IMG/VR virus record: IMGVR_UViG_3300031963_008656
Coordinates: 1-64,000 of that record
DNA from: a virus
Length of the DNA stretch: 64,000 nucleotides
Direction: 5' to 3' (one strand)
Of the stretch, positions 16,895 to 61,266 are shown one piece after another. Within the stretch, counting starts at the first letter, position 1. Every line of letters begins with the position of its first letter. The notes beneath the pieces are model-generated. The model was not told the DNA's origin. It did not search any database and saw only the letters and a program-made list of their open reading frames with translations. The position numbers were made by a program, and so were the translations under genes.

Positions 16895-17925
16895 TTTAAC
16901 ACTCCTTGATATGTTTGATTCAGCCAGCGACCAATTGGTTCGGCTTGGTCACTCAGCTTGGTAAGCTCATACTTGCCACAGAACTTGAGAAAGTGTGCGC
17001 CCACCATCCCTATGTCTTTGTTACTGACTTGTTCACCAATCACAGCATCCACAGTATCTTTTACTTCTTGTGGTTGTGCAGTAAGGTCAATTAGTGTGAC
17101 ATTGCGTTCGTAGTCTTCGAGCACCTTGTGTTCTTTTTCTTCGTGGTCGGTCCAACGTTGCAACATGAGATTGTTCCAATTGTAGCCTTTTTTGTTGCGA
17201 TCTTCAAATGCTTCTGTAATGCCTACACGATTCTTTGTGCCTTTTACTGGTGCACCAGGGTATGCTGAGAACACATTGTCGCCGGGATCACCGCGCACAC
17301 ATTTCAAGAACAGCACCCATTTCTGATAGTCAGTTGGGGCCACAAAGCTCCGGTCGGCTTTGCCTACTTTGATCTTTGAATTGCTTTCGATTGTGAAACT
17401 CAATTTGTTGCCTTTGGCATCAGTTACGCCATCAATACTGAACAGGTGGTCGTTTATGCCATTGTACAATTGCACATTTGGTGCAACCAACTGAACGAAG
17501 TCTGAATCACTGCTGACAATAATATGTTCATCTTGGGGGTGTAGTGCAATCCAGCGGCCTATGATATCGTCCGCTTCTGCTGTTGCGCAACGAATCACGC
17601 TACAATTTGTTTTCTCAGACAAGTATTTAGTCAGCTCATCATAGGTTTCCCAAAACAACTTGTCCTCTTCTGCTTCAGTTTCACTCATGGCACCACGGGC
17701 CACAGCACGATTAGCTTTGTAGGGCTTGTAGTGATCTTTACGCCAGCTACGCCCTTCTAGTGCAAAAACCACATGGTCTACACCAAAACGCCTAGCTACT
17801 TTATTTGCACTCATCATGGTCAAGTGCAGTGCAAAGCCTAATTTAGTCCATGTGTCGCTGGCCCTGTGTGCTGAATGGCGGGCACGGAAAAACATGTTAG
17901 CAGTATCAATCAGTAGATATTTCAT
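16891..17925 (-). CDS. 5'-3' exonuclease / flap endonuclease (T4 RNase H / FEN-like, PIN fold)
   Basis: N-terminal MKYLLIDTANMFFRARH and acidic clusters (DSDF, GDPGDN). Confidence 0.7.
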   Translation of the reverse strand: MKYLLIDTANMFFRARHSAHRASDTWTKLGFALHLTMMSANKVARRFGVDHVVFALEGRSWRKDHYKPYKANRAVARGAMSETEAEEDKLFWETYDELTKYLSEKTNCSVIRCATAEADDIIGRWIALHPQDEHIIVSSDSDFVQLVAPNVQLYNGINDHLFSIDGVTDAKGNKLSFTIESNSKIKVGKADRSFVAPTDYQKWVLFLKCVRGDPGDNVFSAYPGAPVKGTKNRVGITEAFEDRNKKGYNWNNLMLQRWTDHEEKEHKVLEDYERNVTLIDLTAQPQEVKDTVDAVIGEQVSNKDIGMVGAHFLKFCGKYELTKLSDQAEPIGRWLNQTYQGVLK

Positions 17926-18634
17926 TAGGGCGGTCCAGAAGTTTGTGTTCCTTCAAGTATTGTAACACATATTCCGACCAAAATCTATGACCATCGGCTC
18001 CAAAGTGATAACTTTTGGGATTCACATGCTCAAATCCGTTGTTTTTTAGTATGGCATTCCAACTGTGGTCTCTTGAATATGGCTCAATGTAATGCCCTTG
18101 CCAATCTCTTAGATTAAATAAATCACTAAATGTACTGTTGCCACTGTAGAATAAATGTCGTACATTTAGATCTTTCAACCGACAATGCAGGTGCCATATT
18201 TTGTTATGCCATTCATCTGTTTTTTGAGTCCAGTTGACATCCAAAATGTACTGACGATACCTATCTTCAAGCTCTGGTGGTACCATGTCCACACCACTGG
18301 CGTTTACTTGATAGCATCGGCCTTCATACTCCCATTCTTCTCGTTCCCAAGTGGTCCATTGGATTACCATCACAGTGTCATACAAACGGCTATAGTTCTC
18401 ATGAATCCACTTGTTAGTGGTACGCAGTATGCGGTCATTGCTGGCTGCTGACTCAGCATCACAGTAAAATTCAGTGTTGAGCATTCGGCTCAATTGCTTG
18501 CCCCAGCTGGCTTCCAAGTTGATTGGATGAGGTCTACGGTCAATGCCATATCTACCATCATCCACAGCAAAGCAATCAGGCACCACTGCTTCGGCAGCCG
18601 CTGTATGGCTGCATCCATTTACATACAAGATCAT
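17906..18634 (-). CDS. GCS(H/F)(T/S) N-terminal-motif paralog 1 (SGNH-like fold with a Cys in the nucleophile position?)
   Basis: MILYVNGCSHTAA... N-terminus, similar to 20528 and 51474. Confidence 0.45.
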   Translation of the reverse strand: MILYVNGCSHTAAAEAVVPDCFAVDDGRYGIDRRPHPINLEASWGKQLSRMLNTEFYCDAESAASNDRILRTTNKWIHENYSRLYDTVMVIQWTTWEREEWEYEGRCYQVNASGVDMVPPELEDRYRQYILDVNWTQKTDEWHNKIWHLHCRLKDLNVRHLFYSGNSTFSDLFNLRDWQGHYIEPYSRDHSWNAILKNNGFEHVNPKSYHFGADGHRFWSEYVLQYLKEHKLLDRPNEISTD

Positions 18635-19107
18635 TTTTGTAGCAGTACTTTTTCGGTCTCTGCGGCAACCACACGCTTGCGCAGGCTACTGGATGAGAAT
18701 GAGTGATCTCGGCCGTTGAATACTAGTTCAATCCCGCGGTCATAGCATTCGTCGCGACCGGTAAAGTCTTTGTGTTCGTATTCTACTCCCAGTACTCGAA
18801 CATCTAATGGCAGAATTAGTAGAAGGTCACGTAGATCTTGTTCGGTTTGGTACACAACAACTTCATCAACGTAACGGCATGCAGCCAGCTGTATCTGTCT
18901 CTCCACAATACTTTGTATCGGACGATTCTTAGTCTCAGGCCTATCGATAGTTGGGTCCGTTTGGAGCCCACAGATGAGGTAGTCACAGTGATTTTTTGCT
19001 TCAGAAAGCATGGCAATGTGGCCTGCGTGGAGCATGTCAAAGGTTGAGAAAGTGATGCCAATTTTTTTGCCTTCTGCTTTGAGTTGTTTGATGTGATTGA
19101 ATATCAT
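18631..19107 (-). CDS. cytidylyl/adenylyltransferase (HxGH nucleotidyltransferase; TagD / RfaE-domain-II-like)
   Basis: GITFSTFDMLHAGHIAML matches G.FD.LH.GH. Start moved to Met41. Confidence 0.6.
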   Translation of the reverse strand: MIFNHIKQLKAEGKKIGITFSTFDMLHAGHIAMLSEAKNHCDYLICGLQTDPTIDRPETKNRPIQSIVERQIQLAACRYVDEVVVYQTEQDLRDLLLILPLDVRVLGVEYEHKDFTGRDECYDRGIELVFNGRDHSFSSSSLRKRVVAAETEKVLLQK

Positions 19108-19505
19108 GATACCTCGCTCCTGCCATCGCCAAGATCTCGCTTTTGAACATACATGCCGGAGTTCTTGATGGCTTGTTCTTGTTCCCATGTTTCCATCACA
19201 ACATGGCGGCATACATTTTGAAACCAACGGTCAACAATGTCCCCATCAGTGTCTGTAGGTTTCATCATATAGCCAGCCTTTACCAGTCGAGCCACAAAGA
19301 TTTCATTCCAATCCAACTCAAATGCACCTTGATGCAGATTGTCAGGATCCACATCCATACTGAGCACAGCCACGTAAGGTTCTCCCTTTTCAGTAGCAAG
19401 TTGTTTTTCAGTTTTAGCTGGTGGTTCGGCAACTCTAGGCTTAGTGACTTTTTCTACCACAGGTGGTGGTTTCTTTTGAGATTTTTTAAACCAATCAAAC
19501 ATCAA
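19104..19505 (-). CDS. hypothetical protein
   Basis: 133-aa ORF. Confidence 0.45.
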   Translation of the reverse strand: MMFDWFKKSQKKPPPVVEKVTKPRVAEPPAKTEKQLATEKGEPYVAVLSMDVDPDNLHQGAFELDWNEIFVARLVKAGYMMKPTDTDGDIVDRWFQNVCRHVVMETWEQEQAIKNSGMYVQKRDLGDGRSEVS

Positions 19506-19678: not shown

Positions 19679-20524
19679 TTATTTGCCCCATCCATTACCC
19701 CAGAGGTCCACATGCAATCGTGGGCTGTACCAATAACCTCGTTTGAGTGCTTCGTCGGCAACGTGAATTCTATTGCCATCATACACACTCACAACACCGC
19801 CAACAGGCATCACAAAAACTGGTCCGCTAAATCCACGGGTTCGATAGTCGTCAACTACTAGATCAAGCTCTTTGAAATCATCAATGTGACCAACAACAAA
19901 CTTCAAATAGGTAACACCGTGAGTTTCGTAATCCCAAATAATGTCAGGTTTGATAGCATCTTCATACTTTTCACCACTGACACTAAGTTTAGGACTTACT
20001 GAGAATGTGATCTCGCCAAACCATTCAGACAGATACTGTTTGAATTCTCTTGTGAGTTCTTGAGTACCATTGGTTTCAAATGTAATGTGTCGCAGTCCAC
20101 GTTCGTGCAACAGATTCAACAGTTCAGGATATGCACGTTGCCAACCTAGCAATGGCTCGCCACCTGTGATCACAAGATGCACTGAATTGCCGTTTGGTTG
20201 TTGCCAGTGGCCATTGGGCAACAGCGCAGCCATTTTGTCAACTAACTCTTGTGCTGTGTATGTGGGACTTAGATGTTTAAAGTCAGGATGCCAACTTGCA
20301 TACGAATCGCATCCTGTATTAACCAACGGGAGCTCTTCAAAAGTCTTGTAGAGATGAACGCTCTTTGCGACGTCATCTGCCTCAGTGCTCTTATCACCGG
20401 GTTGGCATCCAAATCCCGAACACGTAAAGTTGCAACCGAAGGTTCGTAAGAAGATAGAAGGAACTCCAATATAGCGTCCTTCGCCCTGAGCAGAATAAAA
20501 TAGTTCACTTACTTTTAATTTCAT
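19679..20524 (-). CDS. queE: 7-carboxy-7-deazaguanine synthase (radical SAM)
   Basis: FYSAQGEGRYIGVPSIFLRTFGCNFTCSGFGC aligns to E. coli QueE F.TLQGEG..GVP.IF.R..GC...C..C. Confidence 0.8.
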   Translation of the reverse strand: MKLKVSELFYSAQGEGRYIGVPSIFLRTFGCNFTCSGFGCQPGDKSTEADDVAKSVHLYKTFEELPLVNTGCDSYASWHPDFKHLSPTYTAQELVDKMAALLPNGHWQQPNGNSVHLVITGGEPLLGWQRAYPELLNLLHERGLRHITFETNGTQELTREFKQYLSEWFGEITFSVSPKLSVSGEKYEDAIKPDIIWDYETHGVTYLKFVVGHIDDFKELDLVVDDYRTRGFSGPVFVMPVGGVVSVYDGNRIHVADEALKRGYWYSPRLHVDLWGNGWGK

Positions 20525-21240: not shown

Positions 21241-23223
21241 TTAGGCTGCTAGTTTTGCCCTGGCGCCAGCATCTCCGCGTTTGGCAACGTCTACCTGCGT
21301 GTCAGCGTTCAAGCATTCAACTGTGGCTTTTCCAAAATTTCTACGTCTAGCAAAATAAAATAGTTCTAAGAAACGTGGAAAGCTCATAGTTTTATCTTCT
21401 GGAAACTCCAGTTGATATTCTCTTGGCGCATGTACAAGTTTGTGATCAAAGCTGAGATATTCCCAGATGTTGTAGTCTAATTCTAAAACCTCAGGATAAG
21501 TGTTCATAGCATCGTAAGCCACATGGTATCTGCGTTGGAATCGCATGATGTTCTCCAACAACACAGGCGGTAAATCATAACGACTCATGAACTTTTCTAA
21601 CATGTCAAAGATATTGTGATTTTGTTTTTCCACATGCATGTTCAACACAGTTCTGTGTATGAGGTTCCATCCGTGAATTTCAATGCCAATCTTGGGATGA
21701 TTGATTCGGCCATTGGTCATCCAACTGCGATAGTACTCGCGAACTTCTTCTTGTTCGCGGTGGATCCATTCATGACCTTGCACGTATTCAAACAGGTCTG
21801 CATAAAACTCGCTGTAGGGCACACCCTGATACTTGAACACCAATCGACTCAACAGTGTGCTGATGCCATTGATGTGGAAGGTATTGATAAACCATGAAAA
21901 AATATGTGCTTCCATCATGACATCAAACGGCATGTCTTTGGTGCCAGTGATAATGTCAATGGCTTCTTCAATGTGTTCGTTGGAGTATGATCCAGAAAAA
22001 TAGTCTGTTACACTTTGATTGGTAATCTTAAACAACTTCTTCTGCAACAGGTTCATTTCGGCATTTTCCAACAACTGAGCCTGGAACACCGTGAGACCAG
22101 TATGATTGCCCATTTCAAACAAAGTCCAAAAGTTTTTCTTCCAAGACTCAAGACTTTCACCAGGTAGGCCCAAGATAAGTTCAGTGTAGGTTGGAATGTT
22201 ACGTTGCTCACACAGCTCAAATACTTCGTTGAGCTTGTTCATTTCCATGTTTTTGCGACGAATGTTTTCCAATACATCCAAGTCAAGACTTTGCACACTC
22301 AGCGTTAGACCTTGATTGAAGCCTCGGGCATCCAGCAATTTTTTAACAATGTCCACAACTTCTTTCTTTTGATTCTTGGCCCAGGCCACAGAGAAAGTTC
22401 TCGGAGAACCATACTTTTCTTGACATTCAATAATCTTGTCTGCAATCAAACTGTCACGTTCGGCAAACATGCCAAAGTTAGCGTCAGTAATTGATATGAA
22501 ATCAAAGTTGTGCTTAGCCATCCATTCCAACTCATGGTACACACGTTCTAAACCAAACTTCTTGACCTTGTTGTATGTCAAGCTACCCCAGTCACAAAAC
22601 GTACAAGCAAATGGGCAACCACGAGAAGTTTCTAGTGTGCCTTGCCACATGATGTCAGGATTTGCAGCCATTAGGTCATCAAATACACCTGCCAGATACG
22701 GGCTAGGAATATCTTCAAGAGTTTCAATGCGCTTGGCATCACCTGTGCTTATAGCTTCGCCGTCTCGATTGATCAGCAAGCCAGGTATTGACTCCCAGTC
22801 TTTGCTGTCATATGCCAGCATGAGATTTCTAAATGTGATTTCACCTTCGTAGCAAATCACAATGTCCATGAATGGTTCTTTGCGAAACAGATCTTTGTCT
22901 GTGATTGCAGGTTCGGGACCGCCAAATATGGTCAACACGCCAGGATTGATCTCCTTGAGCCTGCGAGCCAATGCATAGTTGAAATTGTGATTCCACACAT
23001 AAGTGCTAAAAGTCACAACATCATTTTCAGCCAGTCGTTGTGCAATTGGCTCTATGTTGTCCCGGCGCCACACCCATTCAGTCACTTGCCATGCATCACG
23101 TATGCTGGGTTCCGCAACTGCATAACTCCAAATCACACCTGCTGAGTATGGCAGGTAGTAGGCATTGAGTTCTTTAGGACCTTGTTGGAAGTTTGGTTGT
23201 ACCCAGGCAATTTTTCTTTTCAT
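21241..23223 (-). CDS. B12-binding radical SAM enzyme (class B; putative C-methyltransferase or related)
   Basis: 660 aa. The N-terminal about 150 aa is B12-binding-like. Radical SAM cluster ETSRGCPFACTFCDW. Confidence 0.7.
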   Translation of the reverse strand: MKRKIAWVQPNFQQGPKELNAYYLPYSAGVIWSYAVAEPSIRDAWQVTEWVWRRDNIEPIAQRLAENDVVTFSTYVWNHNFNYALARRLKEINPGVLTIFGGPEPAITDKDLFRKEPFMDIVICYEGEITFRNLMLAYDSKDWESIPGLLINRDGEAISTGDAKRIETLEDIPSPYLAGVFDDLMAANPDIMWQGTLETSRGCPFACTFCDWGSLTYNKVKKFGLERVYHELEWMAKHNFDFISITDANFGMFAERDSLIADKIIECQEKYGSPRTFSVAWAKNQKKEVVDIVKKLLDARGFNQGLTLSVQSLDLDVLENIRRKNMEMNKLNEVFELCEQRNIPTYTELILGLPGESLESWKKNFWTLFEMGNHTGLTVFQAQLLENAEMNLLQKKLFKITNQSVTDYFSGSYSNEHIEEAIDIITGTKDMPFDVMMEAHIFSWFINTFHINGISTLLSRLVFKYQGVPYSEFYADLFEYVQGHEWIHREQEEVREYYRSWMTNGRINHPKIGIEIHGWNLIHRTVLNMHVEKQNHNIFDMLEKFMSRYDLPPVLLENIMRFQRRYHVAYDAMNTYPEVLELDYNIWEYLSFDHKLVHAPREYQLEFPEDKTMSFPRFLELFYFARRRNFGKATVECLNADTQVDVAKRGDAGARAKLAA

Positions 23224-24089
23224 GCATTATTTACTTGTTTTTGATCAGTATCTTTTTTTGCAAAATGTGTATGCGGGTTGGCAAATTGAACCATTTGACT
23301 GTTTACATCATTCTGTGCTAGTTTTTCCCAGGGATCTTGACTGCCGTTGAACACGTTGGTAAAGAATGAAAGATCCATACCTAATTCACTGCGCATGTAT
23401 GTGGCCAATTTTGCACAGTCTCGGTGTCGCAGGTCCATTTGCTGAACGCTGTGAAAGTCCAACGGATCATCGGGGCGACCTTCTAGCATGGCACGATTTT
23501 TAAATGTTTCATCGCCGTTGTTGCCAGTCAAGTCGTGGCGATCATGTTCTACCCATACTGGAATTCTTTCCCAAATGTCCAGCATGTATGCCTGTTGACT
23601 CAACCACCCATCTTGTGTGGGATGGGGACTGATGTATCCCAACAGTTCATACCATTTGCGTGGAACTATTGGAAAAATTGAGTAGGGGTGGTCGTTGTGA
23701 GTATGGAATGCCAGCAATCTAAACTTGCCATTGTATTTCAAAATCTCACTGTCCCACCCCTGGGTTTGCATGATGGCATCATCATTCCAAATAACAAACC
23801 AAGGAGCCAGGGCTTTCTCAGCCATCTTGTTGTTGTAGATATGCAATCTGATATATCCCAATGGGTCAAACAACATGGCGGTATAGTGATAACCGTGTGA
23901 GTCTAACCAAGGCTGCAATTCAGTTTGGAAGTACGTTTTGCCTTTGTCATCGTCTTTGTCAAATCCAAACATGATTTGCAAACGATGAGGATTGTCAGCC
24001 AGTTCAAACAAACTGCGAACACTTTTGCCCAACGCTTCTGTACGACCTCGAGTGGCCAACAGTAAAGATATATCAAATTCTTGTGCCAT
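23220..24089 (-). CDS. putative GT-A-fold glycosyltransferase
   Basis: N-terminal DISLLLATRGRTEAL (GT2-like) and WNDD DxD-like motif. Confidence 0.5.
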   Translation of the reverse strand: MAQEFDISLLLATRGRTEALGKSVRSLFELADNPHRLQIMFGFDKDDDKGKTYFQTELQPWLDSHGYHYTAMLFDPLGYIRLHIYNNKMAEKALAPWFVIWNDDAIMQTQGWDSEILKYNGKFRLLAFHTHNDHPYSIFPIVPRKWYELLGYISPHPTQDGWLSQQAYMLDIWERIPVWVEHDRHDLTGNNGDETFKNRAMLEGRPDDPLDFHSVQQMDLRHRDCAKLATYMRSELGMDLSFFTNVFNGSQDPWEKLAQNDVNSQMVQFANPHTHFAKKDTDQKQVNNA

Positions 24090-24750: not shown

Positions 24751-25257
24751 TTAAACGAATAGATCTTCCATCCACTCGCGATGGCCTTCTCTAAAAGCCA
24801 TATTGCTCTGTGTTTCGCGCACTTCCACACGATAGCACCAGAGACGCTCTGCTTCACCCGGTCCCCACAGGTCCGGAATGTAAACACCGTTCACATACTT
24901 GTACAGCATGTCTGCCAAGCCTTCACACCCTAAGCGTGGCAGGATTGTGAGTTTGGCCATTTTTTTCTCTTGCAAGAGCTTGTATGTCGCCAGCTCTGGA
25001 TCATCTGCAGACACCAGCAAGGTATGATCAAATTGATCTTCTAATGTCTTTTTAAGTTCTTTGAGACCGCCATAGTCAGCGGCCCAGTTACGCACATCCA
25101 GGTTGTCTGTGCCAAAGTAGAACTTCATTGAGAATGAGTAACCGTGAATTAGATTGCAGTGGCTGTCGGCACGCCATTGACGGTATGCGCAGGGAAAAGC
25201 ATCATGATACTCTTTGGTGCTGGTGTACTTGTATTGTACTGGTTGATTTGTTGCCAT
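24751..25257 (-). CDS. queD: 6-carboxy-5,6,7,8-tetrahydropterin synthase
   Basis: CxxxHGH zinc motif (HCNLIHGYSF), about 168 aa. TATAAT and AGGAGG sit immediately upstream. Confidence 0.8.
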   Translation of the reverse strand: MATNQPVQYKYTSTKEYHDAFPCAYRQWRADSHCNLIHGYSFSMKFYFGTDNLDVRNWAADYGGLKELKKTLEDQFDHTLLVSADDPELATYKLLQEKKMAKLTILPRLGCEGLADMLYKYVNGVYIPDLWGPGEAERLWCYRVEVRETQSNMAFREGHREWMEDLFV

Positions 25258-26021: not shown

Positions 26022-26426
26022 TTATGGTTTTTGGTAACTACCTGTTTTGTAGTTAGCTTGTCCAATAATAACCCCACGTACTCCGCCCACTGGGTCAGCA
26101 CAGTCACCTGCTCGGCGTGGAATCAAATGCACATGTGGATACATCACAGTTTGACCTGCTTCACGACCCATGTTGATGCCGATATTAAATGCATCACATT
26201 CGCCATTGACAACCATTCTGCGACCATGCAGCATGGCTGATTCAAAACAGTCCATGATTACCGCATCGTTATTGTACTGTGGCACAAACAACAAATGACC
26301 GGGTGTGACAGGATAACGATCACGAAACACAGCCACGTGATAGTCTGACAGTTCTGTCACACGGTCGTCCCAGGGTGCAATATCTTGTTGATATGCAATT
26401 TCTAAATCAGTCATAATAGTTTTCAT
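26022..26426 (-). CDS. HIT-like (histidine-triad-related) nucleotide-binding protein
   Basis: YPVTPGHLLFVP and the YPHVHLIPR core partially match a HIT fold and motif; the third His is absent. Confidence 0.4.
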   Translation of the reverse strand: MKTIMTDLEIAYQQDIAPWDDRVTELSDYHVAVFRDRYPVTPGHLLFVPQYNNDAVIMDCFESAMLHGRRMVVNGECDAFNIGINMGREAGQTVMYPHVHLIPRRAGDCADPVGGVRGVIIGQANYKTGSYQKP

Positions 26427-28625: not shown

Positions 28626-28658
28626 GTTAATTGTAAACTATTTAGATTGACTTGTCAA
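28626..28658 (-). promoter_or_regulatory. sigma70-like promoter upstream of folE (TTGACA-17-TACAAT)
   Basis: Minus-strand reading: TTGACA, agtcaatctaaatagtt, TACAAT. Confidence 0.4.
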
Positions 28659-33762: not shown

Positions 33763-33769
33763 CAGCCAC

Positions 33770-45149: not shown

Positions 45150-45230
45150 GGTTGCTCGTTTTGGATCATTGGGTAGCGAATCCAATGACCCGGGCAGAAG
45201 CCGCCCACTCGGTCCTAAGGCCAGAGTTCT
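45150..45230 (-). other. GC-rich hairpin cluster 3' of the 514-aa gene (putative terminator or processing site)
   Basis: Contains tcattgg-gtagcgaat-ccaatga and gggcgg-cttc-tgccc stems. Confidence 0.3.
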
Positions 45231-48400: not shown

Positions 48401-48422
48401 TAAGTGGGTCTATAAATATTGC

Positions 48423-49469: not shown

Positions 49470-49512
49470 ATAAAGATCTACAACAATTCATGAATCAAAT
49501 TGTCAACTTGTT

Positions 49513-50382: not shown

Positions 50383-51497
50383 CATACCCAGCAAAGTTCC
50401 GATATCCTGTGTATCAACCTGCATCACAAAGTATTGATGTCACAGCTGATTGGGGTCTGGGCAGATTTGAAACTACCAACGATCCTGCACTGGCGCTGAG
50501 TCAACCGTGGTCTGTAGCAGCATTTCGTGTGCTGTGCAACGAGCCCGGCGTGTTTGATTATGATCCAGCACTGGCTGACATGGATCTCAGTCAGTTTGAT
50601 TTGGTACTGCTGAGTGACATTGAATACTACAGTGTTAAAGAAATACGTGCCTGGATTGAAAAAAACAAAATTCAACGTTATGTGTTGGCAGTAGGCGGTC
50701 TTGTGCAAGGAGAAGAATTGGATCAATCCTGCATGGTGTATCGCCCTTGGTGGGCTTACAATCTCTTGCGACACAACGAATACCAAGACACCTACCAAGA
50801 TCAAAAACCCTACATGTTTGAAGCACTGTTAGGAGCACGTAGACCGCACCGTGACTATGTGATGATGGCCATGGACAAAACTGGGCTGTTGGATCGTAGC
50901 ATTGTGACCTACAGAGATTGCTTTGAAGGCAAATTGATTGACAGAAACTGTGATCAATTTCAGCAGACTTTTTATGACACTCCGCTAAAGTGGCCTTACG
51001 TGAGTGCAAACTTAAATCCTGCATGGGAAGTCACGGACAACATCACTCGCAGTATCAGTCCATATGTGCCCTGGAACATCTATCAACGCAGTCATTACAG
51101 CATTGTGTGTGAAACACTGGGCACTGGCACAACATTTTTCTGGAGTGAAAAAGTTACCAAGTGTTTGTTAGCCAGAAGAATTTTTGTGTTTTTTGGCGCA
51201 CAAGGATTTCTTGCTCGCATGCGCGAACTAGGGTTTGAAACATTTAGCAGTATCCTTGACGAAAGCTACGATGAACATCCTGTGGACAGCATACGATTTG
51301 AACGGGCCATGCATCAGGTATTGCAGTTGGCATATTTTGAAAATCCCAAAGTGTTGTATGAACGCATACAAGCCATACTGGATCACAACCAAGCTAGATT
51401 GCGCAGTTACCAGATTCAGTTTCAAGCCACAATGTCTGATCTACTGCATCAACACATTGAAGGTGGCCATTGGTTATGGGATGACGAAGTGGGTTGA
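50370..51497 (+). CDS. paralog-family protein D (LGFETFSSILDESYD)
   Basis: Same C-terminal motif block as 10373, 13634 and 29316. Confidence 0.55.
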   Translation: MYTITYPAKFRYPVYQPASQSIDVTADWGLGRFETTNDPALALSQPWSVAAFRVLCNEPGVFDYDPALADMDLSQFDLVLLSDIEYYSVKEIRAWIEKNKIQRYVLAVGGLVQGEELDQSCMVYRPWWAYNLLRHNEYQDTYQDQKPYMFEALLGARRPHRDYVMMAMDKTGLLDRSIVTYRDCFEGKLIDRNCDQFQQTFYDTPLKWPYVSANLNPAWEVTDNITRSISPYVPWNIYQRSHYSIVCETLGTGTTFFWSEKVTKCLLARRIFVFFGAQGFLARMRELGFETFSSILDESYDEHPVDSIRFERAMHQVLQLAYFENPKVLYERIQAILDHNQARLRSYQIQFQATMSDLLHQHIEGGHWLWDDEVG

Positions 51498-52289
51498 AAT
51501 GTGCTGATAGAAGTTTTCAGCAATTTTTTCCTGTCCTTCGGGACCAGAATGATATCCAGGGTCGTCTCCTGAAAATGGGTAACTGCCACATATGGCTTGA
51601 GGACTTTTAGTTGTGTCCAATTGTATGTAGTGATCAGGGATAAGTTTAGGAAACGCATCACGCCATAAGGTATGATTGTCAGGATCGAATGGCCACAGCA
51701 AGTTGGGTAGCACTAAAAACTTGATGTCATCCAAGAACATGGTAATCACACCTTCTCGGATCATCCACTCGTCCTGTTGCTTTTTCCAAGCATTGTCATA
51801 GATTGAATCAATCCAGTGACGTATGCCGTTCTGCGCTTGTTTGGTAATGCGGCCCTGTCTGTACGGATGATCAAAGTTTTCTGCAAGAGTAAAAATAGTT
51901 TCGCAGATCATGTTTGATGGCTCCCGACCATAATTTACATTGCGTATGCCATCTTGTCTGTTGTAGCCATTGCCCAGTTTTCTATTTTGTAGGTGTCGTT
52001 CTAGTGGAGGATTTTCCCCGGCGCTGGGTGCCTGTGACCAATCATATGGCACAGAGTTTGCAGGTATTTCCATACGATCCCAGAAGGTAGGACCAATCAC
52101 AGCAAAGTCTGGACGCTGTCTGCGTATCTCGTCTATTTGTATACGGATGCCGCCGTTTGAACAACCTTGGCGTGCTAGGTTAACCAACTCCCAGCCACCT
52201 AGTTTTTCGGCCAAGCGTTCACTCCAAGCAGTGCCTGGCAAAGTTTGACTCACTGCCGAAAACGAGCAGCCTGCTACCATTAATTTCAT
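51474..52289 (-). CDS. GCS(F)(S) N-terminal-motif paralog 3 (SGNH-like)
   Basis: MKLMVAGCSFSAV...NLARQGCSNGGI resembles SGNH blocks I and II with Cys in place of Ser. Confidence 0.45.
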   Translation of the reverse strand: MKLMVAGCSFSAVSQTLPGTAWSERLAEKLGGWELVNLARQGCSNGGIRIQIDEIRRQRPDFAVIGPTFWDRMEIPANSVPYDWSQAPSAGENPPLERHLQNRKLGNGYNRQDGIRNVNYGREPSNMICETIFTLAENFDHPYRQGRITKQAQNGIRHWIDSIYDNAWKKQQDEWMIREGVITMFLDDIKFLVLPNLLWPFDPDNHTLWRDAFPKLIPDHYIQLDTTKSPQAICGSYPFSGDDPGYHSGPEGQEKIAENFYQHISTHFVIP

Positions 52290-52798
52290 AGTGTTTCCTT
52301 GTAACTGTTTCGGTGTTCTTCGCTGTGAAAACTAGCAATAATTTCTTTGTGCATGGGCAATTCGTCTAAGTTGTATGTGCCAGGTGGAATTGTATGTGTA
52401 ACTCCTTCACCAGGCCGTGCAAAAGTTACCAGTCTAGGATGCCACTGCACTGCACGATGTACCAGCACATGATGTATGTGTCCATAGTCTCCTAGTTCGT
52501 CATGGGTGAGCACTAGATCATAATCACGAGCAAGGTGCCAGCAGGCACGGTCGGCAGATTCTTCAGCCCAGCGTGTGAATACTTTTTGCTCGTTGTCATG
52601 CCAGTGGTCTTCAAAGCCCAAAAACACACAGTCGATTCCCCGACGTTTCCAAAACGCCAAAAGTTCTTGGCCTCGGGGATCATGCTCAGTGTACGTTAAA
52701 TAGCCAATGGTCCATTTGTGCTCAGGGTGCGCATGAATATAACTGTAACCAAATATCACACAGTCATCTGGATGCGCTACCATACACAATGCGTTCAT
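52286..52798 (-). CDS. PIG-L/LmbE-family N-acetylglucosaminyl deacetylase-like protein
   Basis: VAHPDDCVIFG (compare AHPDDE) and a downstream HxxH. Confidence 0.6.
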   Translation of the reverse strand: MNALCMVAHPDDCVIFGYSYIHAHPEHKWTIGYLTYTEHDPRGQELLAFWKRRGIDCVFLGFEDHWHDNEQKVFTRWAEESADRACWHLARDYDLVLTHDELGDYGHIHHVLVHRAVQWHPRLVTFARPGEGVTHTIPPGTYNLDELPMHKEIIASFHSEEHRNSYKETL

Positions 52799-53640
52799 TC
52801 AAGTTCCCAAGCAGCAAAATGGCCGCGATCAATCAACAACATCTTAAATGCAGTTTTTTGTTCTGGTAACATTTTTGACCAAGCATTTCGATGAATACTC
52901 ACTGTGAGAGCATTTTTATCACGCATGAGTTCAAGTTTCTTATCAAACTGGTCAACTTCGCTATGACAAACATTTACCACACCGCCAAGTGTGTTTTGTT
53001 TGGTATAAAAATGATCCAAATGTCCATACTTGTATTGACAAAATCCTGAGTACAACATGAATTCTGTCAGCATGCCTTGGCGCTGAAACCATGTGGGAAA
53101 ACTTTCATGTGTTTTGATTGTGGTATCAGCAATCATAAAGCGTACAGTGTCATTGTGGAAGAAAAATGGCACACCGCCAGGGCCAGCTTGTTTGGTCATG
53201 TTGATGTCAAACAGCTGATCCACAATGTTCTTACTGGGTTTAAAAACATCAAATATATCCAATTGTCCCACAGTAAGCTGACCTTGTTCGTTAACCAATT
53301 TGGATATTTCCAAGGGTCTAACAAATATAGTCTTGGCGTCTAATACCATGGTGTAGACATTGTAACTTATAGACGCGGTGAGAAGTTTTAGAATCTGCTG
53401 GCTTACCCAGCCGTTTGCTATCCAAGCACTGCTGAATGCTGTGCGCGGCACTACCAAGACAGAGCTTGCTAGATCACCCCACCATGCTGGATCAATTTTT
53501 TCCGCTAGGGTTTCGTAATCATTGAGCACCACATAGATATTTCTTATGCCTATGTTGCGACAATAATTGTTTATGCTTTGTGCCTGAATTTTAAGGATCG
53601 GCAGTTCCTGTTCAAATACTACTGTGCAGATATCAATCAT
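52795..53640 (-). CDS. hypothetical protein (possible glycosyltransferase, weak)
   Basis: 281 aa; the N-terminal segment resembles the ORF at 49513. Confidence 0.45.
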   Translation of the reverse strand: MIDICTVVFEQELPILKIQAQSINNYCRNIGIRNIYVVLNDYETLAEKIDPAWWGDLASSVLVVPRTAFSSAWIANGWVSQQILKLLTASISYNVYTMVLDAKTIFVRPLEISKLVNEQGQLTVGQLDIFDVFKPSKNIVDQLFDINMTKQAGPGGVPFFFHNDTVRFMIADTTIKTHESFPTWFQRQGMLTEFMLYSGFCQYKYGHLDHFYTKQNTLGGVVNVCHSEVDQFDKKLELMRDKNALTVSIHRNAWSKMLPEQKTAFKMLLIDRGHFAAWELE

Positions 53641-56218: not shown

Positions 56219-59200
56219 TTATTTATTGCGTTTGGCTCGAGCCCGTCCAGCCTTCATGTTGGCCATCCAGTGTGCCAATTGTCCTTTGCGACCGCCTTGT
56301 TTGGCCACTTTACGCAGGGTGCTTACTGATGCTTTGGTGGGCACGCCGTGTCGCTTTGAATCGCCTTTGTCTTGGGGATTCCGACCGTCAGCAAAGTTTT
56401 CACCTACGTTGTATGTGGGATCAGTTTTTTGACGCTTGATGCCAGCAGGTTGATTGGGATCTACAGGATCAATGTCAGTGGTGGTTAACCCTAGTTTTTC
56501 CAACTGCTTGATGTATTCATGTTCAAGATCTTCGTCGCCAAAACTCACAATAGTACTGGGTGGTCCTTTGCCAAAATCGTCAGTGTTATCTCTGTCTAAG
56601 TTAGCAATGTTCTTGCCCAACTTGTACCAGTCATACATGTCTGACACATCCACTCGCACAGTGCCCGCTGGCATTGTGGGTCGGCTTTCAGGACCAGGAG
56701 GATCAAAGTTTCCGTAGCGATCCTTGCCTTCGGCTACACCTTCTGTCATGATTGGCACAACTTCAAAGCCTTCGCCTGACACTCCCCGACCATTGTTTCG
56801 CAACCATTGAGCCGCTACACGGTTAGCATCGCCTTGATTGTTGCCCACGCCTGAAAATCTATGAACTTCTTCACCATTGACCAACACCTTCCATGCACCA
56901 GAGAATGTGCCTGGCGTGGCTCGCTGTTGTGCCAAGGCTGCTGTGCTTCCAGGGTAGACCACCTCTATATCTGGTTCAATGTCAATGATACCACCCGATG
57001 CTGCATCTGCAGGCCGATCCCATTGTTCAGTATCCACCACCATGTAGTCAGCAGCAACCACATTGTTTCTAGCAGCCCAGGCTTGGAGAACATATCTGCC
57101 TTGTGCCTGTTCCGCTGGATTGCCCATGTTAAATCTAAACTGATAGTCAGGTGCTGGGCCAGTAAAACTGCCATACAGGCCTGGATCCGAGCGTAGCACA
57201 ATGGCATAGCGACCGTTGGGGTCATTGGGGCGGCCACCACCTTGAGAACCTGGCGGTGCAGTAAAGGCACTAGCTGTGTCGTCGTCTTGTGTAGATTGTG
57301 CATCCAAATTATACGGACGCACAGGTTCAGCCACAATAGATTGTCGTGTGTTGGCCCAAGACGGATAGCCATCATCCCCCAAGGCTTTTTCAATGGCTTC
57401 TTCTCGAGAGGTGGCAACAACTTCTACACTGGCATAACTATTGCCAGGATTGGAAACGTTCCACCACATCTTTTCACCGCTTGTTTTATTACGCTCCGTC
57501 TTGCGTTGTAGTTGTGCTTGCTTGACAAAACTACGCAAGGCAGCCTTGGGAATCTTGCCAGCCACATAGTCAGCAAAGTATCGGATTGTGTCTGACCCTT
57601 TTTGATCCTGAGTCAACAGTTTGTATAGTTTCTTTTGATACTCTTCTCGATAGGCTTCAGGGTTAAGTGCTGCACTCATGGCCACTGTGAAACGCAACAG
57701 AGTGTTTTCAATCTTGTCAAAGTTGTCATCCAGCCAGTCACCACCCGGCGAACGGAATTCAATGTGTCCGCTCTTGGTGTTGATTGATGTGTACTTGTCT
57801 GTGCTGCCTGAATGGATGGCCTTGGAAGCCAGTTCACCCATTTGACCTTTCATCTTGTCCAGCAAACGCTGTGCGTCTTCGGGGTTGGACCGCACACGAT
57901 CACGCACCTTGCCTAGTGCTGATTTGGTGTAGGTATTGGAACTGCGACCAAATTGTTTGAGCACATACTCGTCGCCCAACAGCAAGGCCAGTTTTACATA
58001 GTCCAAACGATCTAAACTGTAGTCAGGCACTGATATGTTGATGTGCAGGCCAGTCGAACTGTTGGTATAAACGCCCATGCGTCCAGCCCAGGCCTTCACG
58101 GCATTTAAATCTTTCAGCAGTTCATCTATGGGCATGGGCGGGCTCACAAACTCCAAGCCTTCGTCGCCGTCATTGTCGCCTTCCAAACTGGCGTCTGGTT
58201 CTACTACATAGAATTGATTGTTGGGTCCAGGTCTGTCGCCGGACTGATGATATCTTGTGTTCACTCGCACTTCACGACCCACAGCCTGACTGAATTCGTC
58301 AGCCACTTGATCTGCGTCAATCTCGCCGCTGTTCATGCTAGTCCAGTAGGGCCAATTCATTCCATACATTTGCTCAACCTCACTCATTCTGTCAAGGTCT
58401 GTGGCGTCTAACCAGTCGCTTTCGTCATAATTTTCTTGGAATTCTTCCCGCCATTCATCAAAGGCTTCATTGTAGTAAGTACTCGAAGGATCAGCGTCTA
58501 CATTGGCTGCAAATTCATCAAATGCTTCGTTTCGTTCATCACCAGTTAACTCGTTAGGATTCCATTCATCTTCATTTACATTATTCCGAAGCCAGTCACG
58601 AATGTAATCTTGGCTTTCACCGCCCCAGTCATCGCGAAGTTTTTCATCCAGCCATTCCTGGAAATCGTCCTGCATTCTTTCACGCAGGCGTTCAACATCT
58701 CTACGGCCGTTGTAGTCGCCATCATGAAAGAATCGCACAGCATCATCAATGCTAACACAGCGTTCATCCTGATCATAGTCTGGTTCCATTTCAGGATCTT
58801 CGGATTCCATACCAGGCACAATCATTTCAAATTCCATGCCAGCAATGGCACCTGTTTTGGCAGCTTCCCTGCGCAAATTTTTGCTGCCCATGTTTATTTC
58901 AAACAGGTCTTGTTCTTCAAACAGTTCAAATTCTTGTGCTAGACTTTCTGCTAACTTTACCTTGCCATCTGCTCGCAACAGTTGTGGATGGCCTTGCGAA
59001 TCAGTGGCCAGTCGCATCTTGTTGGCTTCTGTGCCAGTTTGTCCTGGATGCACATCCACACTCAGTGCCATTTCAAATCGAGGATCGTTGCGTTCGGCCC
59101 AGGTGGGAATGTATCCAGATGACTCACGAATGTCTTCATGGTCAAACAGTTCTGGGTGTGCATCAGCAAAGTCTCGCATGATAATGCCAGCCACAGCGTT

Positions 59201-60388
59201 TGCTTCGTTCTCCACAGGAGAGCCTGTGTTGCCAGATGTGTGATCCAATTGTTCTAATTCCTGTTGGCGGCAGTGTGCCAGTTCGTGTGCCACAGTGCGA
59301 AGAATATCCATCACATGTCGATCGCGCAGATTCACATGCAAAACATGCAGCTCTGGTTGGTACATGCCAAATGAACGATTTTGTTCACTCCATCCGTCAT
59401 TGTCATGTAGTACAATTTCAGGCATGCGTTCAATGCCCAAGCGTTCAGCAGTGTCTTGAATAAACTGTTGCACCATGCTCTCAGTGTCATCTTCATTCAA
59501 GAACATTTGTGTGCTGGCAGCAACACCATCTTCTGAACTGTAGGGTTGTCCTTGATGGCCTTCGCGCATGCTTTCGCCACCACCACCGTCACCACCTTCG
59601 CCTGATTCTCCTCCGTAGCCAAATCCAGGAGACCAATAGCTGCCAAATCCATAACGCACTCGGGATTTCTTTTTTCGGCGTTCTTGTAGACTCAGCTCGT
59701 GATCTTGTGCGGCTGTTCTAGCTGTGCGCAAATCCTTGATGCAACCTTTGTTACGCAGGATTTTGAACACAATGTTTTCACACCCAAACTCGCCGTGAGC
59801 ATCCAAGCCACTTTGGCGCATGGCCTTGATCTTGTCCCACAGTCTGCTCATGGATTCAGCGTTGCCAGATTCAATTGCTGAATGTATTCTAGCATCCAAA
59901 TCTTCGACCTTGGCTCGCACACAGGTGTCGTCAATTCTGGCACGTTTTCTGCGTGGCACTTGAATCCATTCGTCACGTGGGATAGAATACTCACCTTGAC
60001 TCACAGGAGACTCGGCTGCATTTTGCACATACAGTTCCACAGGCACGCCGCCGATGCTCAACTTGTGTTCATCGTTATATTGGTATTTTTTGGCATTGAA
60101 CAGTTCCTGATAAACTTCGTCGTCAGCAGGAAACTCCACCACAAGGTGTAGATCAATGTCGGAATATGGGGTATAGCTGTAGGCAGCATTACTGCCTGAG
60201 ATGGTTATGTCACGGACGTCAAGGTCACCTACGCCAAGAAATTCGCGAAAATTGTCAGCAATGGCCAACAGCTTTTCGCGTACTTCGGGTAACAATTGCT
60301 CGTCCCTGCCCCAGATTTTAGGGTTGAGACGATTGTGAAACTTTACAGCATCACTCAGCTTGAAGGAATCCAGTTCGTTGATGTTCAT
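56219..60388 (-). CDS. giant multi-domain polyvalent-type protein (N-terminal pol-beta nucleotidyltransferase plus zincin HExxH metallopeptidase-like domain)
   Basis: 1389 aa. ISGSNAAYSYTPYSDIDLHLVV ([GS]x9-13DxD nucleotidyltransferase). Gly-rich linker. HELAHCRQQ HExxH motif. Long C-terminal region with a basic tail. Confidence 0.6.
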   Translation of the reverse strand: MNINELDSFKLSDAVKFHNRLNPKIWGRDEQLLPEVREKLLAIADNFREFLGVGDLDVRDITISGSNAAYSYTPYSDIDLHLVVEFPADDEVYQELFNAKKYQYNDEHKLSIGGVPVELYVQNAAESPVSQGEYSIPRDEWIQVPRRKRARIDDTCVRAKVEDLDARIHSAIESGNAESMSRLWDKIKAMRQSGLDAHGEFGCENIVFKILRNKGCIKDLRTARTAAQDHELSLQERRKKKSRVRYGFGSYWSPGFGYGGESGEGGDGGGGESMREGHQGQPYSSEDGVAASTQMFLNEDDTESMVQQFIQDTAERLGIERMPEIVLHDNDGWSEQNRSFGMYQPELHVLHVNLRDRHVMDILRTVAHELAHCRQQELEQLDHTSGNTGSPVENEANAVAGIIMRDFADAHPELFDHEDIRESSGYIPTWAERNDPRFEMALSVDVHPGQTGTEANKMRLATDSQGHPQLLRADGKVKLAESLAQEFELFEEQDLFEINMGSKNLRREAAKTGAIAGMEFEMIVPGMESEDPEMEPDYDQDERCVSIDDAVRFFHDGDYNGRRDVERLRERMQDDFQEWLDEKLRDDWGGESQDYIRDWLRNNVNEDEWNPNELTGDERNEAFDEFAANVDADPSSTYYNEAFDEWREEFQENYDESDWLDATDLDRMSEVEQMYGMNWPYWTSMNSGEIDADQVADEFSQAVGREVRVNTRYHQSGDRPGPNNQFYVVEPDASLEGDNDGDEGLEFVSPPMPIDELLKDLNAVKAWAGRMGVYTNSSTGLHINISVPDYSLDRLDYVKLALLLGDEYVLKQFGRSSNTYTKSALGKVRDRVRSNPEDAQRLLDKMKGQMGELASKAIHSGSTDKYTSINTKSGHIEFRSPGGDWLDDNFDKIENTLLRFTVAMSAALNPEAYREEYQKKLYKLLTQDQKGSDTIRYFADYVAGKIPKAALRSFVKQAQLQRKTERNKTSGEKMWWNVSNPGNSYASVEVVATSREEAIEKALGDDGYPSWANTRQSIVAEPVRPYNLDAQSTQDDDTASAFTAPPGSQGGGRPNDPNGRYAIVLRSDPGLYGSFTGPAPDYQFRFNMGNPAEQAQGRYVLQAWAARNNVVAADYMVVDTEQWDRPADAASGGIIDIEPDIEVVYPGSTAALAQQRATPGTFSGAWKVLVNGEEVHRFSGVGNNQGDANRVAAQWLRNNGRGVSGEGFEVVPIMTEGVAEGKDRYGNFDPPGPESRPTMPAGTVRVDVSDMYDWYKLGKNIANLDRDNTDDFGKGPPSTIVSFGDEDLEHEYIKQLEKLGLTTTDIDPVDPNQPAGIKRQKTDPTYNVGENFADGRNPQDKGDSKRHGVPTKASVSTLRKVAKQGGRKGQLAHWMANMKAGRARAKRNK

Positions 60389-60405
60389 ACGAACTGTATT
60401 TACCG

Positions 60406-61266
60406 TTACTTGGCTGTAGCTGGTTCTTCCACGGGCACAACATCCACAGGGGTGCTGGATGCCATGATTTCAGGCTCAGTTATATCAACTGGTTGCTTGG
60501 CTGCATCATGTGCATTGGCAATCTTAGGAGCAGCAATAGCATGCAAGTCTTGGTACAACTTGTCCTGTGTTTGCGCATCAAACACATAGGTGCCCACGTG
60601 TTTCAACAACACACGTTTGTCGATATACACTTTGCCGCCTAGATCACGCCAGTTTTCGCAGAATGTCCAGTCTTCTGAATAGTAGCGGTTTTCACGCACA
60701 GCAGTGTCAAAGTAGGTTTTCATGTACTTGTCCAGCGCAGGATCTAGACCAATGTCATTGTTGAAATGACGCACAGCAGGGTGTGCATTCAGTTTGTCAA
60801 ACACATCTTTCTTGATCAACAAGAATCCTGTGCCAGTCTTGGTAACTTCTACCAAGTTGTCCACGCCTTCTTCTTGACCTGGAATGCCATTCACACACCA
60901 TTTAACTGGCAGTGATTTCATGGGATACAATCCACCAATCACATCCACTTGGCGATTTAGCAACACCAACAAATGCCAGGGTTCCCAGCCAATGTCCGCG
61001 TCAATAAACATCAAGTGTGTTGAACCTTCTGTATTCAAAAACTTTGCAGTCAGAGTGTTTCTAGCACGACTAATCAAACTTTCATTAGTCATGGTTTCTA
61101 CAGTCCAATCAATGCCTAGTTGTCGGCAGGTATTGCCCCATTTGATAAAACTCATGAATGTTGCTTCTGTCAGCTGGCCCCCATAACAGGGCATACAGAT
61201 GTGAACACGAGTGGTTTTTAGATATTCAAGGTCGACTTGAATTTGAACTTGTTGTGGCTCTGCCAT
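60406..61266 (-). CDS. putative GT-A-like glycosyltransferase
   Basis: VHICMPCYGGQ (GT2-like N-terminus) and LMFIDADIGW DxD. Confidence 0.45.
   Translation of the reverse strand: MAEPQQVQIQVDLEYLKTTRVHICMPCYGGQLTEATFMSFIKWGNTCRQLGIDWTVETMTNESLISRARNTLTAKFLNTEGSTHLMFIDADIGWEPWHLLVLLNRQVDVIGGLYPMKSLPVKWCVNGIPGQEEGVDNLVEVTKTGTGFLLIKKDVFDKLNAHPAVRHFNNDIGLDPALDKYMKTYFDTAVRENRYYSEDWTFCENWRDLGGKVYIDKRVLLKHVGTYVFDAQTQDKLYQDLHAIAAPKIANAHDAAKQPVDITEPEIMASSTPVDVVPVEEPATAK

Follow-up and report, generated by a model that had tools for sequence, protein, structure and literature searches.

Positions 1 to 64,000 of the IMG/VR virus record IMGVR_UViG_3300031963_008656 (hereafter the window, a 64-kb stretch of phage DNA) carry sugar-related genes placed among genes for the synthesis of 7-deazaguanine and its insertion into DNA. 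We propose, with a probability of about one half, that the sugar genes of the lineage core are part of an operon for 7-deazaguanine hypermodification of DNA and that a sugar is placed on the deazaguanine in DNA. The key gene, g55, is predicted to encode a GT4-like glycosyltransferase with a GT-B fold. The identities, order, and tight packing of the operon genes, the division of the sugar genes into a core and a strain-variable set, and the linkage of the GT-B gene to DpdL, DpdA, FolE, and QueE in other phages are directly observed. An earlier note on this DNA, made from its letters, had treated the sugar genes as one toolkit and had offered three explanations for it: (a) a glycosylated or otherwise hypermodified DNA base, (b) glycosylation of the virion, and (c) remodelling of the host surface. 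The toolkit is more than one unit, since it splits into a lineage-core set and a strain-variable set. Explanation (a) gains support because the g55 family is fixed next to the deazaguanine genes in very different phages, and this support extends to the core subset (GalE, DegT, g55, the nucleotidyltransferase, the GT-A-like protein, and HIT) and not to the remaining genes.

The operon and its glycosyltransferase

In the window, 90 open reading frames (ORFs) have been called, most of them on the minus strand. The source appears to be an uncultured, abundant freshwater jumbo phage of ~350 kb related to Phosso, Atu_ph07, and PA5oct, because related IMG/VR contigs reach 343–353 kb and an identical polymerase is found on many contigs; the window covers less than one fifth of such a genome. 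The family B DNA polymerase (PolB) is 51% identical to that of the Sinorhizobium phage Phosso, 47% to that of Atu_ph07, and 42–45% to those of Vibrio 2.275.O, XbC2, CBB, and GAP32. Identical PolB is present on at least 23 metagenome contigs (ENA, and JGI 3300008116), while a megablast search with 20 kb of the window found no nucleotide match to cultured phages. Two sets of contigs have been used for comparison. The lineage set comprises 317 related contigs anchored on four different genes, and presence in the lineage is the share of the contigs spanning a gene's position that carry the window gene. The distant set comprises 80 viral contigs picked solely by a distant g55 homolog (32–47% identity), with neighbourhoods of ±10 kb. 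Genes have been assigned from Pfam, NCBIfam, and PHROGs scans, and structures from AlphaFold2 (AF2) models searched with Foldseek; PHROGs gave nothing for most window proteins without a Pfam match. The genes present in at least 90% of the lineage are the following.

16891-17925, minus strand: 5'-3' exonuclease (FEN; PF02739, E 3e-19), the anchor on one side of the module
17906-18634, minus strand: g34, SGNH-like DUF6071 protein (PF19547, 29.2 bits, cut-off 27) with the motif G-C-S-H-T in its N-terminal part; 97% of the lineage
18631-19227, minus strand: g35, predicted sugar-phosphate adenylyl/cytidylyltransferase, RfaE domain II-like (PF01467, 44.9 bits; TIGR02199, E 2e-24)
19679-20524, minus strand: g37, QueE, 7-carboxy-7-deazaguanine synthase, a radical SAM enzyme matching five QueE equivalog models
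23220-24089, minus strand: g40, putative GT-A-like glycosyltransferase (phrog_14945 "glycosyltransferase", E 3e-9) with a DxD-like WNDDA motif; 96%
24751-25257, minus strand: g42, QueD/6-carboxytetrahydropterin synthase (PF01242, E 7e-15); 100%
26022-26426, minus strand: g44, HIT-family nucleotide hydrolase/transferase, HinT-like (PF01230, 35.1 bits); 90%
27895-28587, minus strand: g50, FolE, GTP cyclohydrolase I (PF01227, E 2e-38); 100%
30314-30910, minus strand: g53, short DegT/pyridoxal phosphate (PLP) aminotransferase-like protein (PF01041, 55.7 bits in two stretches) with an SFGHTKP lysine motif
30885-31847, minus strand: g54, UDP-glucose 4-epimerase GalE (TIGR01179, 282.7 bits against an equivalog cut-off of 262.3)
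31844-33058, minus strand: g55, predicted GT4-like GT-B glycosyltransferase
34009-34452, minus strand: g57, DpdL, a QueD paralog and proposed 7-carboxy-7-deazaguanine decarboxylase
34449-34982, minus strand: g58, orphan DpdL-associated domain protein; 97%
37027-38565, minus strand: g62, DpdA-type DNA guanine transglycosylase with a DSGGFQ motif, similar to tRNA-guanine transglycosylases (TGT); 95%
41019-43679, minus strand: PolB, the anchor on the other side of the module
60406-61266, minus strand: g83, putative GT-A-like protein (phrog_1574, of unknown function, E 4e-36)

With the variable genes left out, the core genes from PolB to FEN form one tightly packed, co-directional array in which deazaguanine and sugar genes alternate. 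The interleaving described in the earlier note is borne out by the operon layout, and its deazaguanine genes are confirmed as FolE, QueD, and a TGT-like DpdA. Stop and start codons overlap by 4 nt at g63/DpdA, FkbM/g58, g58/DpdL, g56/GT-B, GT-B/GalE, and DegT/g52.

The matches of g37 to the QueE models (E 1e-10 to 3e-14) are fragmented and all fall below cut-off; the protein is 46% identical to the annotated QueE of phage BUCT-ZZ01. In DpdL the signature LxxxHRHxF, as defined in PMC10516641, replaces the CxxxHGH of QueD, and g57 carries it in the form L-GTP-HRH-I-F. This protein is 55% identical to DpdL of ACP17 and 32.5% identical to that of phiST (E 3e-9), and it matches phrog_17812 (E 7e-36). 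DpdL has been found in just 28 of 50,697 phage records. The transglycosylase g62 is 36% identical to PA5oct EST35_0316 and groups with the DpdA proteins of PA5oct, X1, and ACP17. The profile of this DpdA family finds tRNA-guanine transglycosylases in the PDB (E 2e-4 over ~200 residues), and it did not match the DpdA3 of phiST. For g58, profile searches of Pfam (with 17 g58-type sequences) and the PDB gave no match, and a homolog is present in ACP17 (E 3e-12). In other phages this domain either stands alone, immediately upstream of the GT-B gene, or forms a C-terminal fusion with DpdL (L092, L096, L099, L122, L123, and L163), which makes it a candidate for a missing component of the DpdL pathway. 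A short gene resembling HhH-GPD DNA glycosylases (27488-27898; 10% of the lineage) overlaps the stop codon of FolE, and it is of note that defence nucleases sensing modified bases use inactivated EndoIII/HhH domains.

Neither Pfam nor phmmer and tblastn searches with an approximate E. coli QueC query detected QueC in the window or at the loci of the lineage and of the 80 distant contigs, and QueA, QueG, and QueF genes have not been seen in the window. Since the cluster has DpdL and no QueC, it should yield plain 7-deazaguanine, which, unlike a base of the queuosine type, offers no diol handle. In mannosyl- and galactosyl-queuosine of vertebrate tRNA, a dedicated glycosyltransferase places the sugar on a 7-deazaguanine derivative, at the cyclopentenediol of queuosine. 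The earlier note had drawn this comparison; it is apt as to a sugar on a 7-deazaguanine derivative but chemically inexact, as the window lacks QueC and the queuosine branch and its transglycosylase is of the DNA (DpdA) type. The window shares FolE, QueD, QueE, DpdL with its signature, DpdA, the lack of QueC in the region, and the adjoining replication genes with the DpdL-type system of phiST (PMC10516641), and by sequence it appears to be a system of this type. It differs in that the window and about half of the cultured DpdL phages have a GT4-like enzyme by DpdL and DpdA, often with the orphan domain and GalE, whereas phiST is without these.

The AF2 model of g55 (predicted template modelling score, pTM, 0.71) has two Rossmann-like domains in a GT-B fold and matches LmbT, SPS, BshA, GlgM, WaaG, PimA, and MshA (Foldseek, E 4e-8 to 1e-6). 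Among 62 g55 homologs, the nucleotide-sugar binding residues Arg214 and Lys219 are invariant and Asp297 and Glu305 (D-x7-E) are at least 90% conserved; the N-terminal acceptor domain also holds many invariant residues. The Pfam family Glycos_transf_1 (PF00534) gives no match in g55 and is matched by 40 of 62 distant homologs (27–56% identity). On the strength of the model, g55 has the fold and motifs of GT4-like enzymes but shows no particular likeness to the DNA glucosyltransferases of T4. Its mean identity in the lineage (86%) compares with 88% for PolB, so the two are equally conserved. This GT-B protein was not singled out in the earlier note, which had listed four GT-B paralogs. The latter family (g52, g75, g26, and g23) does have the GT-B fold, but two of its members (g23 and g26) lie outside the region that the note covered, and an hhalign comparison finds no sequence relationship between the two GT-B families.

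Among the other core sugar genes, the GalE-like epimerase that had been noted earlier is secure: g54 clears the equivalog cut-off, matches the Pfam family Epimerase (E 1e-53), and overlaps g55 by 4 nt. The DegT-like PLP enzyme holds in part, as g53 retains the PLP-lysine motif and matches profile segments ~22–98 and 170–200, but at 198 aa it is about half the length of full-length DegT/DnrJ/EryC1 proteins (~360–380 aa). The gene is found in 97% of the lineage, and its product is equally short there. Of the HxGH nucleotidyltransferases, g35 stands, while a second (61323-62039) is generic and just outside the region. The four GT-A-like proteins have fared less well. The assignment of g40 comes from PHROGs, with no match in Pfam or the PDB; g78 matches DUF6492, g74 does so below threshold, and g83 shows weak matches to Anp1 (E 0.05) and, by profile, to the STIV A197 chain (E 0.023). 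We take A197 and DUF6492 to have the GT-A fold.

Linkage in distant and cultured phages

A word-indexed protein search with g55 returned solely near-identical, unannotated relatives (85–96% identity), and the distant homologs have been reached through a search of representatives. The sole long member of the family (P0156, 655 aa) has an uninformative extension. In 185,579 species genomes the family occurs at 5 loci, all of them on contigs of metagenome-assembled genomes (MAGs), which suggests that it is essentially phage-specific. Three long MAG loci carry the module DpdA-DpdL-GT-B-GalE-FolE-QueE, two of these together with a phosphoribosyltransferase, and on two short MAG contigs DpdL lies directly beside the GT-B gene.

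The same partners recur in the distant set, although these contigs had been picked by the GT-B gene alone. By tblastn with the window proteins, DpdL is found on 73 of the 80 contigs, FolE on 65, and QueE on 42; by ORF clustering, DpdA-like proteins are found on 64–66, QueE on 56, QueD on 46, and GalE on 18. All partner genes are on the same strand as the GT-B gene. The median gap that separates them from it is 2 bp in the case of DpdL, 545 bp in that of DpdA, and -8 bp in that of GalE, and GalE directly adjoins the GT-B gene at 18 of the distant loci and at 4 loci from MAGs. Of the 80 distant loci (L086-L165), 16 also have a gene for a small XGPRT-like phosphoribosyltransferase with the module, as does BUCT-ZZ01 (L166, 9093-9554), suggesting that some phages also turn the deazapurine base into a nucleotide. 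A pathway in which FolE, the PTPS-like protein, and the GT-B enzyme make a pterin glycoside was considered, tetrahydrobiopterin glucosyltransferase being among the structural matches, and was rejected since QueE and DpdA co-occur with the GT-B gene.

With family hidden Markov models, the GT-B gene has been found beside DpdL in 6 of the 12 groups of cultured DpdL phages: Phosso, ACP17, the PA5oct group, X1/BUDD, BCSR5, and BUCT-ZZ01. The Phosso gene, already annotated as a glycosyltransferase, overlaps the DpdL stop codon. The ACP17 gene (ASD50404) is flanked by those for DpdA and DpdL and is preceded by a g58-like gene (ASD50402), and the PA5oct gene is EST35_0317. In BUCT-ZZ01, a 447-aa protein between FolE and DpdA (L166, 11010-12353) shows a very weak match to the GT-B profile (E 4e-5) and may be a further divergent glycosyltransferase.

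The DNA of PA5oct resists restriction enzymes with G-containing sites, and this phage is targeted by END nucleases that sense hypermodified DNA; the authors of this 2025 preprint did not identify the base (PMC12191111). The phiST phage has DpdL and plain 2'-deoxy-7-deazaguanosine in its DNA (Cui et al. 2023, PMC10516641). When only dpdL and dpdA from phiST or ACP17 were co-expressed in E. coli, no 7-deazaguanine was obtained, and the authors considered that other enzymes are perhaps needed (PMC10516641). In the library of papers searched, we found no mention of glycosyltransferases in such clusters, of glycosylated deazaguanine in DNA, or of any sugar-modified purine in DNA.

Proposed pathway and competing explanations

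The pathway that we infer from gene content, including the attachment of a sugar to a deazapurine in DNA, its acceptor atom, the sugar itself, the timing of its addition, and the roles of the tailoring genes, is as follows. FolE, QueD, and QueE would make 7-carboxy-7-deazaguanine (CDG), from which DpdL, probably together with the orphan g58 domain, would remove the carboxyl group to give 7-deazaguanine. DpdA would then swap this base into the phage DNA. A hexose, probably galactose or N-acetylgalactosamine (GalNAc), would be attached by g55 from a UDP-sugar supplied by the adjoining GalE, either to the base before insertion or to the DNA afterwards. In the lineage, the nucleotidyltransferase, the GT-A-like protein, the HIT protein, and the short DegT-like protein may act further on the sugar, extending or altering it. 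The strain-variable sulfotransferase-like, FkbM, and SGNH-like genes and the extra GT-B gene could decorate it differently in each strain, as would be expected under pressure from modification-dependent nucleases.

Several observations weigh against the attachment of a sugar. 7-Deazaguanine has no hydroxyl handle to take one. The sugar step cannot be obligatory, because phiST has plain 7-deazaguanine without a GT-B gene, and in 6 of the 12 cultured DpdL groups (phiST, RHph_I1_18, MA9V-3, Bakedbeans, D479, and Ahp1) no GT-B gene lies within 9 kb of DpdL. The g55 model is of moderate quality (predicted local distance difference test score, pLDDT, 67.6), and its 50 best structural matches include no T4 DNA glucosyltransferase. 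Outside the lineage, the GT-B gene, g58, and sometimes GalE travel with the module, while DegT, g40, g35, and HIT do not, and core status within a single lineage partly reflects shared ancestry. QueC or genes for the export of surface glycans could lie in the ~290 kb outside the window. Finally, for the window phage as for every other carrier of the GT-B gene, the case for a glycosylated base is a genomic one.

More tentatively, and at somewhat less than even odds, we suggest that a widespread group of phages, comprising the window lineage, PA5oct, ACP17, Phosso, X1, BCSR5, and BUCT-ZZ01, replaces guanine with a sugar-bearing 7-deazaguanine by means of a phage-specific GT4-like enzyme together with DpdL and DpdA, and that in the window lineage the sugar is further methylated, sulfated, acylated, or extended. 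To our knowledge, all sugar-bearing DNA bases are pyrimidines, and the substituents of the 7-deazaguanines known from DNA are small (cyano, amido, aminomethyl and its derivatives, carboxy, or hydrogen). If the suggestion is true, this would be the first glycosylated purine in DNA, a new class of base in which the sugar and deazaguanine chemistries are joined, with a bearing on the evasion of restriction, CRISPR, type IV enzymes, and END nucleases, on phage-DNA sequencing, and on enzyme tools. The failed reconstitution with DpdL and DpdA alone would then be explained as well, the GT-B enzyme and the orphan g58 being two candidates for the missing components. One operon in which tailoring genes turn over from strain to strain would offer a natural experiment on how DNA glycans diversify. 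As six groups of cultured phages carry the module, among them the phage-therapy candidate PA5oct, the question is immediately testable.

The nearest functional analogy would be the clusters in which phage glycosyltransferases build mono- to trisaccharides on 5-hydroxymethylcytosine (5hmC) in DNA (Pyle et al., bioRxiv 10.1101/2023.12.21.572611). As in these clusters and the T4 alpha- and beta-glucosyltransferases, the enzymes of the window are phage GT-B and putative GT-A proteins akin to those of lipopolysaccharide (LPS) and small-molecule synthesis, sometimes with several per cluster and with variation between phages. The 5hmC systems need a hydroxymethylase, or a methyltransferase with a TET-like oxygenase; Pfam searches of the 64-kb window found neither a thymidylate-synthase-like hydroxymethylase nor a TET/JBP-like oxygenase, and the partner pathway in the window is that of a purine, 7-deazaguanine. 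The window system would then be a purine counterpart.

The strongest competing explanation, although we consider it unlikely, is that the sugar genes are auxiliary glycan genes for remodelling the host LPS or capsule or for glycosylating the virion, and that their position among the deazaguanine genes is accidental, set by where accessory genes happen to insert. A precedent is the cyanophage P-SSM2, a lytic member of the T4 superfamily, whose 24 genes for epimerases, transferases, and synthases have been interpreted as LPS genes and stand in clusters that a sister phage does not have (Sullivan et al. 2005, PMC1079782); this also shows that the earlier note overstated the window toolkit in calling it exceptionally large for a phage. 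The P-SSM2 clusters differ from the window in that they have been interpreted as acting at the cell surface and have no genes for DNA base modification interspersed among theirs. The window also contains accessory genes of an envelope type (a porin, a fatty-acid desaturase, and an SPFH protein), many of its tailoring genes vary between strains like those of surface-glycan loci, two outlying cassettes resemble inserted "morons" in having all or some of their genes on the opposite strand, and the closest structural matches of the GT-B proteins include the LPS and capsule enzymes WaaG, WlaC, and PglA. On the other hand, Pfam searches of the window found no flippase (Wzx), ABC exporter, polymerase (Wzy), ligase (WaaL), initiating phosphoglycosyltransferase, or Gtr membrane protein, and the genes sit between PolB and FEN, among replication and not structural genes. 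Moreover, in unrelated phage lineages g55 stays coupled to DpdL and DpdA, with gaps of 0–50 bp, which chance insertion cannot explain. Given this linkage and the location among replication genes, auxiliary glycan genes are a viable explanation mainly for 10331-14593, 48366-53640, and 60406-61266. Explanations (b) and (c) of the earlier note may apply to the strain-variable cassettes; export and assembly genes were not found in the window, and the setting is one of replication genes. For the two cassettes and the gene at 60406-61266, DNA, virion, and host glycans are all candidate targets.

It is also possible, but in our judgement quite improbable, that the GT-B enzyme acts on the free base or nucleotide, producing a transient intermediate or a soluble, antimetabolite-like deazapurine glycoside, and that the packaged DNA contains 7-deazaguanine only. 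The best structural matches of g55 are small-molecule enzymes (LmbT, BshA, MshA, and tetrahydrobiopterin glucosyltransferase), its acceptor domain is highly conserved, and the XGPRT-like phosphoribosyltransferase shows that free-base chemistry occurs in the clusters. N2-glycosylated 7-deazaguanines are known as natural products, namely dapiramicin and huimycin. However, the GT-B gene is linked to DpdA, which inserts the base into DNA, about as tightly as to the biosynthetic genes, and a soluble product offers no obvious reason for conservation at the level of PolB. The targeting of PA5oct by END nucleases also speaks for a modification of the DNA, though plain deazaguanine might suffice for it.

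That the transglycosylase and the GT-B enzyme instead modify tRNA, either the phage tRNA-Asp(GUC) or a host tRNA, to give a glycosylated queuosine-like wobble base is very improbable. The window does encode tRNA-Asp(GTC), a tRNA of the queuosine class, the sole PDB relatives of the DpdA profile are tRNA-guanine transglycosylases, and the vertebrate enzyme for mannosyl-queuosine is a GT4-type protein. The TGT match is weak, however, and g62 groups with the phage DpdA proteins; it is the virion DNA of PA5oct itself that is restriction-resistant at G-containing sites, a DpdL-type cluster gives 7-deazaguanine in the DNA of phiST, and the genes QueA, QueG, and QueF of the queuosine route have not been seen. 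Least credible is that the sugar toolkit is an illusion created by spurious motif matches. The profile and structure searches have largely refuted this: at least 13 genes pass curated thresholds or have structural or family support. Most enzyme calls of the earlier note hold, its GT-A and SGNH calls are weak, and the weak or unsupported calls include the methyltransferase at 40078-41082, the GDSL motifs, 49513-50382, and 60406-61266.

Strain-variable genes and other features of the window

The variable genes of the operon and the outlying cassettes are the following.

10331-14593, unstranded entry: cassette of the GT-B paralog g23, the Asn-synthase-like amidotransferase g24, g25, and the GT-B paralog g26, outside the region of the earlier note; ~40–57% of the lineage
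21241-23223, minus strand: g39, B12-binding radical SAM protein, KedN5-like C-methyltransferase (PF02310 and PF04055); ~56%
28655-29365, minus strand: g51, GDSL-like protein with sub-threshold GDSL matches at block I only; 1%
29316-30317, minus strand: g52, GT-B paralog of g75, g26, and g23, with the GT-B family fold; 9%
33055-33966, minus strand: g56, possibly SGNH-like insert between DpdL and the GT-B gene, with no family match; 4%
34979-35956, minus strand: g59, FkbM-family methyltransferase (PF05050, 60 bits; TIGR01444, 58.8 bits), overlapping the start of g58; 3%
38562-39401, minus strand: g63, sulfotransferase-like protein (PF03567, 22.1 bits against a cut-off of 22, profile positions 7–250 of 252); 12%
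48366-53640, unstranded entry: semi-conserved cassette of g73 to g78, including the GT-B paralog g75 and the SGNH-like g76; ~55%
48366-49469, in this cassette: g73, radical SAM/SPASM protein
49513-50382, in this cassette: g74, DUF6492-like, sub-threshold (E 0.008)
52286-52798, in this cassette: g77, PIG-L deacetylase (33.6 bits against a cut-off of 28.2)
52795-53640, in this cassette: g78, DUF6492 (41 bits)

The sulfotransferase-like gene g63, the FkbM gene, g56, g61, g52, g51, and a YhhQ-type transporter are each present in 1–12% of the lineage. The assignment of g63, which the earlier note had made from its HIPK motif, is borderline but appears real: the motif is present, the Sulfotransfer_2 threshold is passed marginally, and 12 of 68 homologs are annotated with PF03567. 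Its stop codon overlaps the start of DpdA. The FkbM and PIG-L enzymes have been upheld, as have three radical SAM enzymes, namely QueE, the B12-dependent KedN5-like g39 (NF033712, 257.7 bits, below its cut-off), and the SPASM-type g73. The GDSL/SGNH hydrolases lie below threshold or consist of a motif only, and of two other methyltransferases that had been proposed, one (40078-41082) is unsupported and one (15838-16464) is weak and outside the region.

The recent history of the operon can be seen in the sister contig L004, whose polymerase is 100% identical. Compared with 33055-39401 of the window, it is without the sulfotransferase-like gene, g61, the FkbM gene, and g56, and its DpdA allele is just 77% identical, which indicates a recent exchange of cassettes inside the modification operon. 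In L003 and L004, which lack g56, DpdL and the GT-B gene are nearly adjacent.

The GT-B paralog family gave no Pfam match in 41 members and no profile match to PDB sequences, and a specific kinship to the T4 beta-glucosyltransferase was rejected, as the ranking was marginal. A profile of g74 and g78 likewise found no match among PDB sequences. The asparagine-synthase-like glutamine amidotransferase g24 (11448-12989) is flanked by two GT-B paralogs; its role as a substitute for QueC was considered and dropped, since it belongs to this separate variable cassette.

The genes at 1670-2560, 4549-5313, and 5770-6564 encode a Gram-negative porin (Porin_4, E 3e-25), a fatty-acid desaturase, and an SPFH/Band 7 protein, and they look like envelope-directed accessory genes. 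The desaturase and SPFH genes are carried by none of the 10–11 lineage contigs that span them, and the position of the porin is uncovered in the set. Directly downstream of PolB lies an amidinotransferase-like protein (43776-44840; HsvA, E 2.8e-4; StrB1, E 0.15) found in 23% of the lineage. A 514-aa low-complexity protein rich in Ala, Gly, and Pro (45230-46774), with no family match, is present in 11%. The 1389-aa protein at 56219-60388 has an Amidoligase_2 domain and a weak nucleotidyltransferase match, and its lineage homologs are highly divergent and variable in length.

An Rfam search found no riboswitch (e.g., preQ1) in the window. It did find a permuted transfer-messenger RNA (tmRNA) of the alphaproteobacterial type on the minus strand at 2664-3145 (RF04321, 115 bits; RF01849, 57 bits), with the tag ANDEKFLMAA. 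It adjoins tRNA genes for Asp(GTC), Glu, Leu, Arg, and Met in a tRNA/tmRNA block at 799-4090. The type of this tmRNA hints at an alphaproteobacterial host, which is consistent with the rhizobial and agrobacterial phages among the relatives of the window phage.

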